Source: Dehalococcoidia bacterium (GTDB lineage Bacteria; Chloroflexota; Dehalococcoidia; Bin125). Taken from it: a DNA stretch of 64,000 bases. Location of the stretch: contig CAXXRD010000001.1 in assembly GCA_963663895.2 (NCBI GenBank), positions 800,001-864,000 on the forward strand, in the 5' to 3' direction. The position numbers and the translations under genes were made by a program. This document shows positions 1 through 61,154 of the stretch, piece after piece. The notes under the pieces are model-generated. The model was not told the DNA's origin. It made no database searches and saw nothing but the letters and a program-made list of their open reading frames with translations. The number at the start of each line of letters is the position of its first letter. The first letter of the stretch is position 1.

Positions 1-571
1 CTACCGCCAGTCCGTGCCGCTTGGCGATCGCGCGGACGCCGTCCTTGTGCAGCTCGCCGAGGGGGAAGCGCGTGCGCGCGCGCGCCTCGGCCGGCAGGGT
101 GTAGAGAACGTAGGACTGGTCCTTGCCGGCATCAAGGGCGCGGTGGAGTTCGACGCCGCCGGGTCCTTCGACGCGGCGGGCGTAGTGGCCGGTCGCGATA
201 TAGTCGGCGCCGAGGGCCATGGCCCGCTGGAAGAAGGCGTCGAACTTGATGTGCGTGTTGCATTCGAGGCACGGGTTGGGGGTGCGGCCGCGCGCGTAGG
301 AGCCGACGAAGTGGTCGACGACCTTGGTGCGGAAGGGTTTCTCTAAGTTGAGCACGTAGTGGGGAATATCGATCTGCTGGGCGATGCGGCGGGCGTCGTC
401 GATGTCCTCGACGCCGCAGCACTGGGTGCGGCCGCTGAAGCCGGCAGGGCGCGCCTCGGTCCAGAGACGCATGGTGATGCCGATAGTGTCGTAGCCCTGC
501 TCCTTGCAGAGCAAGGCGGCGACGGAGGAGTCCACGCCGCCGCTCATGGCGACGACGATCCGCTCGGGCAT
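1..571 (-). CDS. mnmA: tRNA 2-thiouridine(34) synthase MnmA (runs off the window edge)
   Basis: Manual translation from ATG at 571: MPERIVVAMSGGVDSSVAALLCKEQGYDTIGITMRLW; SGGVDS PP-loop, later RTPNPCLECN and IATGHYA motifs. Not in ORF track because there is no stop in the window. Confidence 0.93.
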   Translation of the reverse strand, partial: MPERIVVAMSGGVDSSVAALLCKEQGYDTIGITMRLWTEARPAGFSGRTQCCGVEDIDDARRIAQQIDIPHYVLNLEKPFRTKVVDHFVGSYARGRTPNPCLECNTHIKFDAFFQRAMALGADYIATGHYARRVEGPGGVELHRALDAGKDQSYVLYTLPAEARARTRFPLGELHKDGVRAIAKRHGLAV

Positions 572-59217: not shown

Positions 59218-59320
59218 CTCCCGGCGCACACGTTCGCGGCCCGGGGCGAGCGCCAGGCATTCTTCCCGAGGTCAATAGGGGAAGCCCAGGGCAGCCGATC
59301 CAATGGGGAAGTAGCGCCCC

Positions 59321-59971
59321 TCAGTCGCGGCGGGGGACGCCCAAGCGGCCGAGCACGCTGGCGAAGGTCTCGAAATCCTGGGCGCCCATCATCATGTAGC
59401 GGTCGCCGAACAGAAACGTGGGCGTGCTGGTGATGCCGTGCTCGCGCATGCGAGCGGTGCTCTCGGTGACCGCCTCGCTATAGGCGCCGCGCTCCAAATG
59501 GGCGCGGAGATCGGCGCCGTCGAGGCCTTGCTCGCCGGCGATGGCGACCACTTGGTCGACGGTGCTGATGTTGCGGGCCTCGCCGAAGTAGGCGGTGAAG
59601 ATGGCGTAGTGGAGCTTGTCGTAGGCATCGGGGCCTTGGTCCCGGGCCCATTCGCTCGCGGCGAGGGCGTTGTGGCTGTTGGCGATGAGGGGGTTGCCCT
59701 GGAAGGGCAGGCCGGCTTGCTGGGCCTCCGCGGCGAGGTACTCGCGCACCTCCGGCTTCATAAGGGGGCGGCGCTCGTCTCGCTCATAGCCTTGGGCGGG
59801 AATTTCAGGGTGGAGCTCGAACGGGACCCATTCGGCTTCGGCCGTGAACTCGCGCACCATGCGGTCGGTGCGAGCCAGACCGATGTAGCACCAGGGTCAG
59901 AGGTAGTCGGAGACGATGGTGATCTTGATGGGGTTGGCAGCGCTGTAGACGATCTCGGGTTGGTCAGGCAT
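59321..59971 (-). CDS. DsbA/FrnE family thiol oxidoreductase with in-frame TGA (probable selenocysteine, UPWC)
   Basis: MPDQPEIVYSAANPIKITIVSDYL-TGA(59897-59899)-PWCYIGLARTDRMVREF...WVPFELHPE...GITSTPTF...GAQ in one frame; GAGGAG RBS. Confidence 0.88.
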
Positions 59972-61154
59972 CGGGCTCTCCTCCGGGCGGTTGGCCGTCC
60001 GTCTCCCTGGCGGCGGGGAGCGCGGGCTCCACGGTGGCGGCGGCCGAGGCGGCGGGCCGCCAGGGTTGCCGTGCTGCCCGAACCCACTCGCTCCAAGCGG
60101 CTCTGGGGTTGCCGGCGATATCGTGCAGCCCCATCTGCGCGACGAGATCATAGGGGCTTTCGCTAGCGTAGGCAGGGTCACGGGGGGCGAGCCAAACGAG
60201 GAGTTCCCATTGCTGGGCCTGCGCTTCGGCCAGCATGCGCCGGAGAAAGCTGGCCTGCCCGGATTCGGTGCCGTAGGTAAGGCCGCCGCGGCCGGAGCCG
60301 GCCGCGTAGCCGACGGGGACGAGGGCGAGGGGCTTTTCAAAGGCGCGCAGCCGGGAGAAGTACTCCGCCGGGATCTCGGTGACGAAGGGGAAGACGAAGG
60401 AAGGGAAAGTGCTGACGGCGAGGAGATCGAGGACGTCGCTCAGGCGCTGGACGAGGGGCCATTGGGGAGGGTGGGGGGCGACCCACTGGAGCAGGCCCTG
60501 CAGGTCTTCGAGCTGGAAGGTGGCGAACACGGCGCTGCCGGGGCGCTGCGCTTTGGCGCGCGCGTAGGCCTGGCGGTAAGCGGCTTCGAAGGGAGCGAAG
60601 CCGCTGGGGTTGGCACGCGCGATCTGGTCCATGTCCACAGCGAGGGCGAGCCAGCGAGGCTGGTAGTGCTCAAGGATGAGATCGACGTAGCGCAGGTAGG
60701 CATCGACGACGGCGGGATCCGCGAAGGAAGCGCCGGGGGCGCCGGCGGTGAGACGGGCGCGGTCGGTGAGATCGAAGGGGTCGATGGCGAAGAGAAGATC
60801 GAGACCGAGTTGGTCGAGGAGGGAGCGCTCGTGGGCGATCGTGGCGCGCGTGTCGTCGGAGAGCTGGACGCCGGCGAGGAGCTCGGGCCAAGGAGGTGCG
60901 CGCTGAATCATGATGACGTCGCCGAAGGCGGCGGCCGTGTGGAAGAGAGCGAGGTGCGACTCGGCGGTGAGGTCGCCGGGGACGGCGCTGAAGCCCATGG
61001 CGAAGGGGCGCGGATCGGCAGGGGGCGAGGCGGTTGTAGTGGGAGTGGAAGCGGGAACGGGGGCGGGATCAGCGGCGCAAGCGGCGATCAGCGGAAGGGC
61101 GGCCAGAAGAAGAGCAACAGGGCGCAGTTGCAGGAACCAGTTGCGCATCATCAT
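59964..61154 (-). CDS. Lipoprotein with glycoside hydrolase-like TIM barrel
   Basis: Lipobox LIAAC; DLLAVSTFP, KPLALVPVGY, ESGQASFL, MGLHD...PRAAW pattern typical of clan GH-A-like barrels. Confidence 0.6.
   Translation of the reverse strand: MMMRNWFLQLRPVALLLAALPLIAACAADPAPVPASTPTTTASPPADPRPFAMGFSAVPGDLTAESHLALFHTAAAFGDVIMIQRAPPWPELLAGVQLSDDTRATIAHERSLLDQLGLDLLFAIDPFDLTDRARLTAGAPGASFADPAVVDAYLRYVDLILEHYQPRWLALAVDMDQIARANPSGFAPFEAAYRQAYARAKAQRPGSAVFATFQLEDLQGLLQWVAPHPPQWPLVQRLSDVLDLLAVSTFPSFVFPFVTEIPAEYFSRLRAFEKPLALVPVGYAAGSGRGGLTYGTESGQASFLRRMLAEAQAQQWELLVWLAPRDPAYASESPYDLVAQMGLHDIAGNPRAAWSEWVRAARQPWRPAASAAATVEPALPAARETDGQPPGGEPDA

Follow-up and report, generated by a model that had tools for sequence, protein, structure and literature searches.

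Results

Position, reading frame and neighbours of the gene

The window (the whole 64,000-nt stretch of DNA analysed here, taken from a Dehalococcoidia genome) carries on its minus strand a gene for a putative DsbA/FrnE-like selenoprotein, together with a co-oriented gene upstream and a convergent chaperone gene (Table 1). The start codon of the selenoprotein frame is an ATG at 59971-59969 on the minus strand. When TGA was translated as U, the frame read MPDQPEIVYSAANPIKITIVSDYL-TGA-CCC-TGG-TGC-TAC-ATC-GGT and then continued to the stop codon TGA at 59323-59321. A single internal TGA was found in the 216-codon frame, in the protein context SDYL-U-PWC-YIG. An earlier note on this DNA had described a frame in which TGA is followed by CCC-TGG-TGC-TAC-ATC-GGT and which continues into the ORF at 59321..59860, and this frame was present as described.

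Under translation table 11, the ORF list contained 59321..59860 alone, which encodes 179 aa starting at Met38 and is without the active site. This is exactly the ORF that would be obtained if the TGA were a true stop and the gene a pseudogene or a split gene, from which a peptide of 24 aa, the 179-aa product that starts at Met38 or both would be made and in which the redox motif would be lost. However, the Shine-Dalgarno-like sequence and the ATG that follows it are located at 59971 and not at Met38, which argues against a true stop and for the longer frame.

Table 1. Features of the selenoprotein locus and groups of homologous loci mentioned in the text
Feature	Coordinates or loci	Strand	Details
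DsbA/FrnE-like selenoprotein CDS (putative)	59321..59971	-	216 codons/aa, Sec at residue 25, stop TGA 59321-59323
In-frame TGA, codon 25, first position of UPWC redox motif	59897..59899	-	sequence and translation
TGC = Cys28, resolving cysteine of UxxC	59888..59890	-	invariant column in 36 aligned homologs
Shine-Dalgarno-like GGAGGAG	59978..59984	-	read from sequence; ATG 6 nt downstream
Candidate SECIS, long imperfect hairpin +17..+62, 46 nt, apical loop GCAU at +38..+41	59838..59883	-	predicted MFE and RNAalifold
Short hairpin counterpart +17..+35	59865..59883	-	in register with the family's compact SECIS-like hairpin
Upstream co-oriented gene, 396 aa	59964..61154	-	lipoprotein-like N-terminus (…LIAAC…)
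ClpB-type AAA+ chaperone gene, 826 aa	56737..59217	+	convergent with selenoprotein gene, ~100 nt between stops
U-P-F-C-Y-I-D loci	L049, L053-L058, L060, L062-L064, L068, L071, L081, L093, L108, L110
Archaeal-titled Cys loci	L070, L078, L079, L090, L105, L107, L109, L113, L114, L116

The stop codon of the upstream gene overlaps the start of the selenoprotein frame by 8 nt (ATGCCTGA). A tblastn search showed that the 396-aa gene is located directly upstream of the selenoprotein gene in all 14 same-family loci, and the same search in six more distant loci (L035-L040) gave no match to this neighbour. The Pfam search of the 396-aa protein returned no family. Its look-alikes in a language-model search were hypothetical proteins of Chloroflexota, with GH53/GH5-like clusters at lower ranks, which can serve as a lead only.

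The read-through product resembles FrnE

The read-through product matched the Pfam DSBA family (PF01323; profile positions 2-190 of 191) with an E-value of 9.7e-32. Among proteins of solved structure, FrnE of D. radiodurans was the closest in sequence (5cnw/5cp1; phmmer E 1.4e-22 over residues 12-210, ~30% identity), and this alignment agreed with the claim of the earlier note that the TGA takes the place of the first Cys in the CPWC motif of FrnE. The AlphaFold2 model (36 homologs) had a mean pLDDT of 95.1 and a pTM of 0.90, and residue 25 was located in it between strand 15-21 and helix 26-41, which is the usual place of CxxC in the thioredoxin fold. When the structure was compared using Foldseek, the top five matches were all entries of D. 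radiodurans FrnE (drFrnE), with TM 0.81-0.85 and rmsd 2.0-2.8 (5co3: TM 0.83, rmsd 2.1), and SCO1869, kappa-class GSTs and HCCA isomerases ranked below FrnE. Five positions were invariant among the 36 aligned sequences, namely D22, position 25, P26, C28 and P184, the presumed cis-proline. The Rcas_1661 family thioredoxin-like (seleno)lipoprotein (NF041057) was rejected as an assignment for the product, as its score of 61.4 bits fell short of the cut-off of 190 and the C-terminal half alone matched.

U25 and C28 are the sole Sec/Cys residues of the product, which ends at residue 216 (...LGVPRRD), and the C-terminal CxxxxC tail of the FrnE type was absent from the 216-aa selenoprotein. Direct reading of the sequence shows that the N-terminus MPDQPEIVYSAANP is polar and leads directly into strand 15-21, with the active site at residue 25. 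This leaves no room for a signal peptide, which suggests that the protein is cytoplasmic. By analogy with D. radiodurans FrnE, it may function as a reductase or an isomerase.

The TGA is conserved and alternates with Cys codons

Six-frame translations of 61 genomes (the source genome and 60 relatives) were searched, and matches were found in 30 of them. The best 22 matches (at least 81.7 bits, from 21 genomes, 32-100% identity) each contained exactly one TGA, and the weaker or partial matches contained none. In all 20 loci fetched from the relatives, the TGA was present at the identical codon, within the motif D-[YF]-[ILV]-U-P-[WF]-C and at identities down to 32%; the motif with its TGA is therefore not a product of chance. 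In addition, 80 public loci were obtained when one genome was scanned for each species, and the position of codon 25 was TGA in 31, TGC in 34 and TGT in 15 of them; four of the 31 TGA loci duplicate the contigs of L022, L025, L029 and L032. The records of the Sec forms were titled Chloroflexota/Dehalococcoidia, Dormiibacterota, Eisenbacteria and a Wukongibacter isolate, among others. Alternation of TGA with Cys codons in homologs, which the earlier note had named as a check on Sec recoding, was thus found, with TGA exchanged for TGC or TGT at exactly codon 25.

These results bear directly on the possibility of a true stop. The 24 codons that precede the TGA, and the U-P-W/F-C motif behind them, show conservation at the protein level at identities as low as 32%, and the TGA itself is kept in the 20/20 fetched loci and in 31/80 public loci. 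A single stop that is kept across genera and phyla does not mark a dead gene.

The archaeal-titled homologs in our sample (Promethearchaeota/Promethearchaeia, Bathyarchaeota, Halobacteriota and 'uncultured archaeon'; Table 1) were all Cys forms, with TGT or TGC. DsbA-like selenoproteins have been reported in Asgard archaea, according to the excerpted part of a 2026 review (PMC13188914).

In the runs X3 and X6, which belong to two other studies, contigs with 16 differences over 778 nt and 7 differences over 591 nt, respectively, were identical to the window at 59897-59899. The TGA, which the earlier note had wished to see confirmed in raw reads, was thus confirmed at the level of contigs. As the same TGA was also present in the assemblies of all 20 relatives, the probability that a TGC or TGT was turned into it by faulty sequencing or assembly is negligible. 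The RNA-library run X20 gave one contig (168 nt, 6 differences), which matched 59348-59515. As this contig does not extend to the TGA, it carries no information on expression or read-through.

At 59874-59923, many other contigs with matches of 35-40 nt only were observed in all four metagenome/metatranscriptome runs, and their summed depth was far above that of the flanks. This pile-up probably represents homologous genes of other community members that share the motif region only.

The genome encodes the Sec machinery and uses TGA as a stop codon

Recoding of UGA as Sec, as proposed in the earlier note, implies that the Sec machinery is encoded elsewhere in the genome. The tRNA-Sec, selA, selB and selD were all present in the source genome (2.37 Mb, 5 contigs, 66.5% GC). 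The tRNA-Sec scored 71 bits and was called SeC by ARAGORN, with the anticodon tca. The scores were 497.9 bits for selA and 359.4 bits for selD, and selB, a 634-aa frame with a long C-terminal extension, reached 349.3 bits with its two matched parts joined. A complete Sec machinery is a further argument against a true stop, which, given also the conservation of the TGA and the position of the ribosome-binding site, we regard as extremely unlikely.

The selD gene (contig C2:564495-565427 (+), locus L018) is itself a selenoprotein gene, with one in-frame TGA in the motif LCGG-U-ASK. A heuristic for more selenoprotein genes, applied to the whole genome, looked for TGA codons with high-GC3 frames on both sides and Cys/Ser/Thr close by; it returned 391 candidates yet missed both the target gene and selD, and was rejected as too noisy.

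Among the 61 genomes, selA was above the cut-off in 21/21 genomes with the TGA form, and the TGA form was found in 0/9 genomes without a selA match; since 52 of the 61 genomes have selA, this association is statistically weak. It nevertheless bears on a second alternative, namely that the UGA is read as an ordinary amino acid, through near-cognate decoding as Trp or Cys, through Cys mis-charged on tRNA-Sec or through a reassigned code. The Cys homologs, which are common (49/80) and look functional, would be compatible with such a reading. In contrast, the TGA form was found in selA-bearing genomes only, the position is a classic Sec/Cys redox site, and the hairpin after the UGA that was predicted in the Sec forms is weaker in the Cys forms (see below). 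Furthermore, TGA terminates 510 of the 1251 open frames of at least 400 codons in the genome, and also the selenoprotein gene itself, so the genetic code is not reassigned. Decoding as an ordinary amino acid is therefore very unlikely.

Recoding of the UGA as Sec is thus supported by the machinery, by conservation of the TGA, by the alternation of Sec and Cys and by the contigs of other studies. Collectively, these results indicate, with a probability that we estimate at about 0.92, that 59321..59971 on the minus strand is one gene, which encodes a cytoplasmic DsbA-like thiol-disulfide oxidoreductase of the FrnE type with Sec as its N-terminal attacking residue (U25-P-W-C28).

Sec forms outside the clade have a predicted compact hairpin downstream of the UGA

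For comparison of RNA structures, the U of the UGA was numbered +1, and three sets were used: 32 unique Sec sequences from outside the clade of the window's gene (non-clade), 13 unique sequences of its own clade and 49 unique Cys sequences. In the non-clade Sec forms, a compact hairpin was predicted at +17..23/+29..35 with mean pair probabilities of 0.64-0.71, and its apical loops were 5 nt long and mostly began with GG(U), as in GGUCG, GGUGC and GGAGA. The helix was paired in 93.1% of cells, with compensatory changes in 4/7 pairs, and the whole 10-pair structure was 91.9% paired, compared to 20-50% when the partner was slid by 1-3 columns. Among the 49 Cys forms, mean pair probabilities reached 0.12 at most, and the helix +17..23/+29..35 was 67.9% paired. 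The median fold z-score of +14..+40 was -1.80 in the non-clade Sec forms versus +0.38 in Cys forms with a GC of at least 0.55; because the compared sequence sets are related, p-values overstate the case.

A tight group of Sec forms with the motif U-P-F-C-Y-I-D (Table 1) carries a perfectly paired hairpin, UCGACUC-GGUCG-GAGUCGA, and its records are titled Dormiibacterota, 'Chloroflexi CF_*', Chloroflexota or uncultured Actinomycetes. This group contributes most of the compensatory changes counted among the non-clade Sec forms.

The 32 non-clade Sec hairpins served to build a covariance model (R1), with which the window, 12 loci of the clade and 49 Cys loci were searched. Within the window, the selenoprotein gene scored 46.1 bits and the next match 11.1 bits. 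As a test of structure, R1 was rejected, as three Cys forms (62.2, 59.4 and 58.7 bits) outscored every Sec form of the clade; R1 thus mainly scored the conserved I-G-L-x-R-V-E codons on which the stem lies, and these account for part of the hairpin signal. These results show that the hairpin signal in the non-clade Sec forms is real but not clean.

A longer hairpin is predicted for the gene itself and for its clade

In the gene itself, the counterpart of the compact hairpin would consist of the pairs U17-A35, C18-G34, G19-C33, G20-C32, U21-A31 and U23-G29, with a C22/C30 mismatch and the loop GGCUC. On the gene's own sequence, this short hairpin had an energy of -4.1 kcal/mol and an ensemble P of 0.00, and across the 13 unique sequences of the clade it was 75.8% paired. 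The long hairpin at +17..+62 was the MFE structure when the RNA of the gene was folded from +11, +14 or +16; these starts were chosen from the size of the ribosome footprint and were meant to mimic a ribosome on the UGA. RNAalifold on the 13 clade sequences independently gave the pairs 17-21/58-62, 24-26/51-53 and 28-31/46-49. The long structure derived from the gene's own sequence was 80.8% paired across the clade versus 27-42% when slid, with four pairs changed on both sides. Support for it is moderate, because the structure was derived from one of the tested sequences, and 17-38 of 500 shuffles reached the observed values, which relatedness alone can produce. The median MFE of +14..+66 was -20.8 in the clade versus -18.3 in GC-matched Cys forms.

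The whole 73-nt region was not unusually stable, with a z-score of -1.38 and 23/200 shuffles that folded as well, and this unexceptional fold is a point in favour of a true stop. An Rfam scan of 59300-60000 with E-values up to 10 gave matches at chance level and no SECIS family. When all 20 relatives were placed in one alignment, RNAalifold returned three pairs only, because the 3' arm lies in different codons in different clades.

The earlier note had pointed to a different helix, between GGUGC (+8..+12) and GCACC (+29..+33), around a GGUCUG segment likened to the loop of fdhF. The quoted letters are all present downstream of the UGA. The helix can form (-6.9 kcal/mol) but has an ensemble P of 0.00, and only 4 nt separate it from the UGA. 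Across the clade, 4/5 of its pairs persist without any compensatory change, for no other cause than that the Trp-Cys codons never vary. The GGUCUG segment sits in the 5' arm of the favoured 46-nt fold and outside its loop, and the helix named in the earlier note was not supported. The hairpin that starts at +17 is predicted to be the best SECIS candidate for the gene.

Discussion

In the mechanism that we propose, the UGA at 59897-59899 would be recoded during translation. SelB with Sec-tRNA(Sec) would bind the mRNA hairpin that starts 13 nt after the UGA (+17) and would deliver Sec to the ribosome, and the terminal UGA of the gene, which lacks the hairpin context, would still terminate the protein. 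The enzyme may then exchange electrons with substrate disulfides via a U25-C28 selenenylsulfide. The insertion of Sec at residue 25 itself and the hairpin conformation bound by SelB are both steps that we infer. For annotation, the value of the finding is that the true product would be a 216-aa selenoenzyme in place of the 179-aa fragment without an active site that table 11 calls. The genome further indicates that this Chloroflexota lineage, although its genome is small, has a full Sec system in which SelD is itself a selenoprotein.

The longer hairpin of the clade and the overlapping upstream gene invite a further, rather doubtful reading, in which this family would have a remodelled SECIS of 46 nt in place of the compact one of 19 nt, and translational coupling to a glycoside-hydrolase-like lipoprotein would tie the enzyme to a dedicated redox partner. 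If true, the remodelled SECIS and the coupling would suggest such a dedicated partnership and not a general housekeeping role of FrnE.

Among proteins with a solved structure, drFrnE (DR_0659; PDB 5cnw, 5co3 and 5cp1) is a cytoplasmic disulfide oxidoreductase of the DsbA family. Like the selenoprotein, it has a CP(W/F)C-type site at the same place and no N-terminal signal segment. The two proteins differ in that Sec is found in the selenoprotein where drFrnE has its first active-site Cys, and in that the selenoprotein is without the CxxxxC tail that drFrnE carries at residues 239-244. In the part of the literature on FrnE that was available (PMC8945050), this tail is given a proposed role in regeneration of the active site, and it is also missing from S. 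roseofulvus FrnE and from the D. maricopensis homolog. Since some FrnE proteins are without it, the CxxxxC tail is not strictly defining for FrnE. In its mode of action, the gene product would be a FrnE with Sec in place of the first active-site Cys and with no CxxxxC tail.

The sequences gathered here, 45 unique ones with Sec and 49 with Cys, form a clean natural set on what a bacterial SECIS needs within a strongly constrained coding region. In the fdhF-type SECIS of E. coli, the hairpin starts ~11 nt after the UGA and has a G/U-containing apical loop and a bulged U, and it is bound by the C-terminal domain of SelB. The present system is similar in that its predicted hairpin starts 13 nt after the UGA, the non-clade loops have 5 nt and are mostly GG(U), and selB has a long C-terminal extension. 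It is unlike the fdhF type in that there was no Rfam match and in that the favoured fold in the gene is an imperfect hairpin of 46 nt with the loop GCAU. A bacterial SECIS close behind the UGA would be expected to have a G in a small apical loop; the predicted loop GCAU contains a G, but alternative folds compete with this hairpin, its statistics are moderate, and R1 did not separate Sec from Cys forms. The hairpin of the clade appears longer, and its predicted apical loop is ~35 nt away from the UGA, compared to ~21 nt in the non-clade Sec forms.

The statement of the earlier note that DsbA-like selenoproteins exist in bacteria is borne out in print. As far as the consulted sections of the two sources go, a DsbA-like selenoprotein family (COG2761, UxxC) with widespread Cys homologs was first described on the basis of metagenomic sequences of the Sargasso Sea (Zhang, Fomenko, Gladyshev 2005; PMC1088965), and a 'DsbA-like protein form 1' (PF01323, UxxC) is listed in the 2026 review (PMC13188914). 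Since the UxxC family was published in 2005, there is little new in the finding itself, which makes a well-supported addition to a catalogued selenoprotein family and changes no open question. The present gene shares with the 2005 family the domain PF01323, a UxxC motif with Sec for the first Cys, the Cys homologs and a stem-loop after the UGA, which in the present gene is predicted. Nothing essential differs between them, the present copy coming from an uncultured Chloroflexota (Dehalococcoidia) genome, and the gene is an ordinary member of the DsbA-like selenoprotein family known since 2005.
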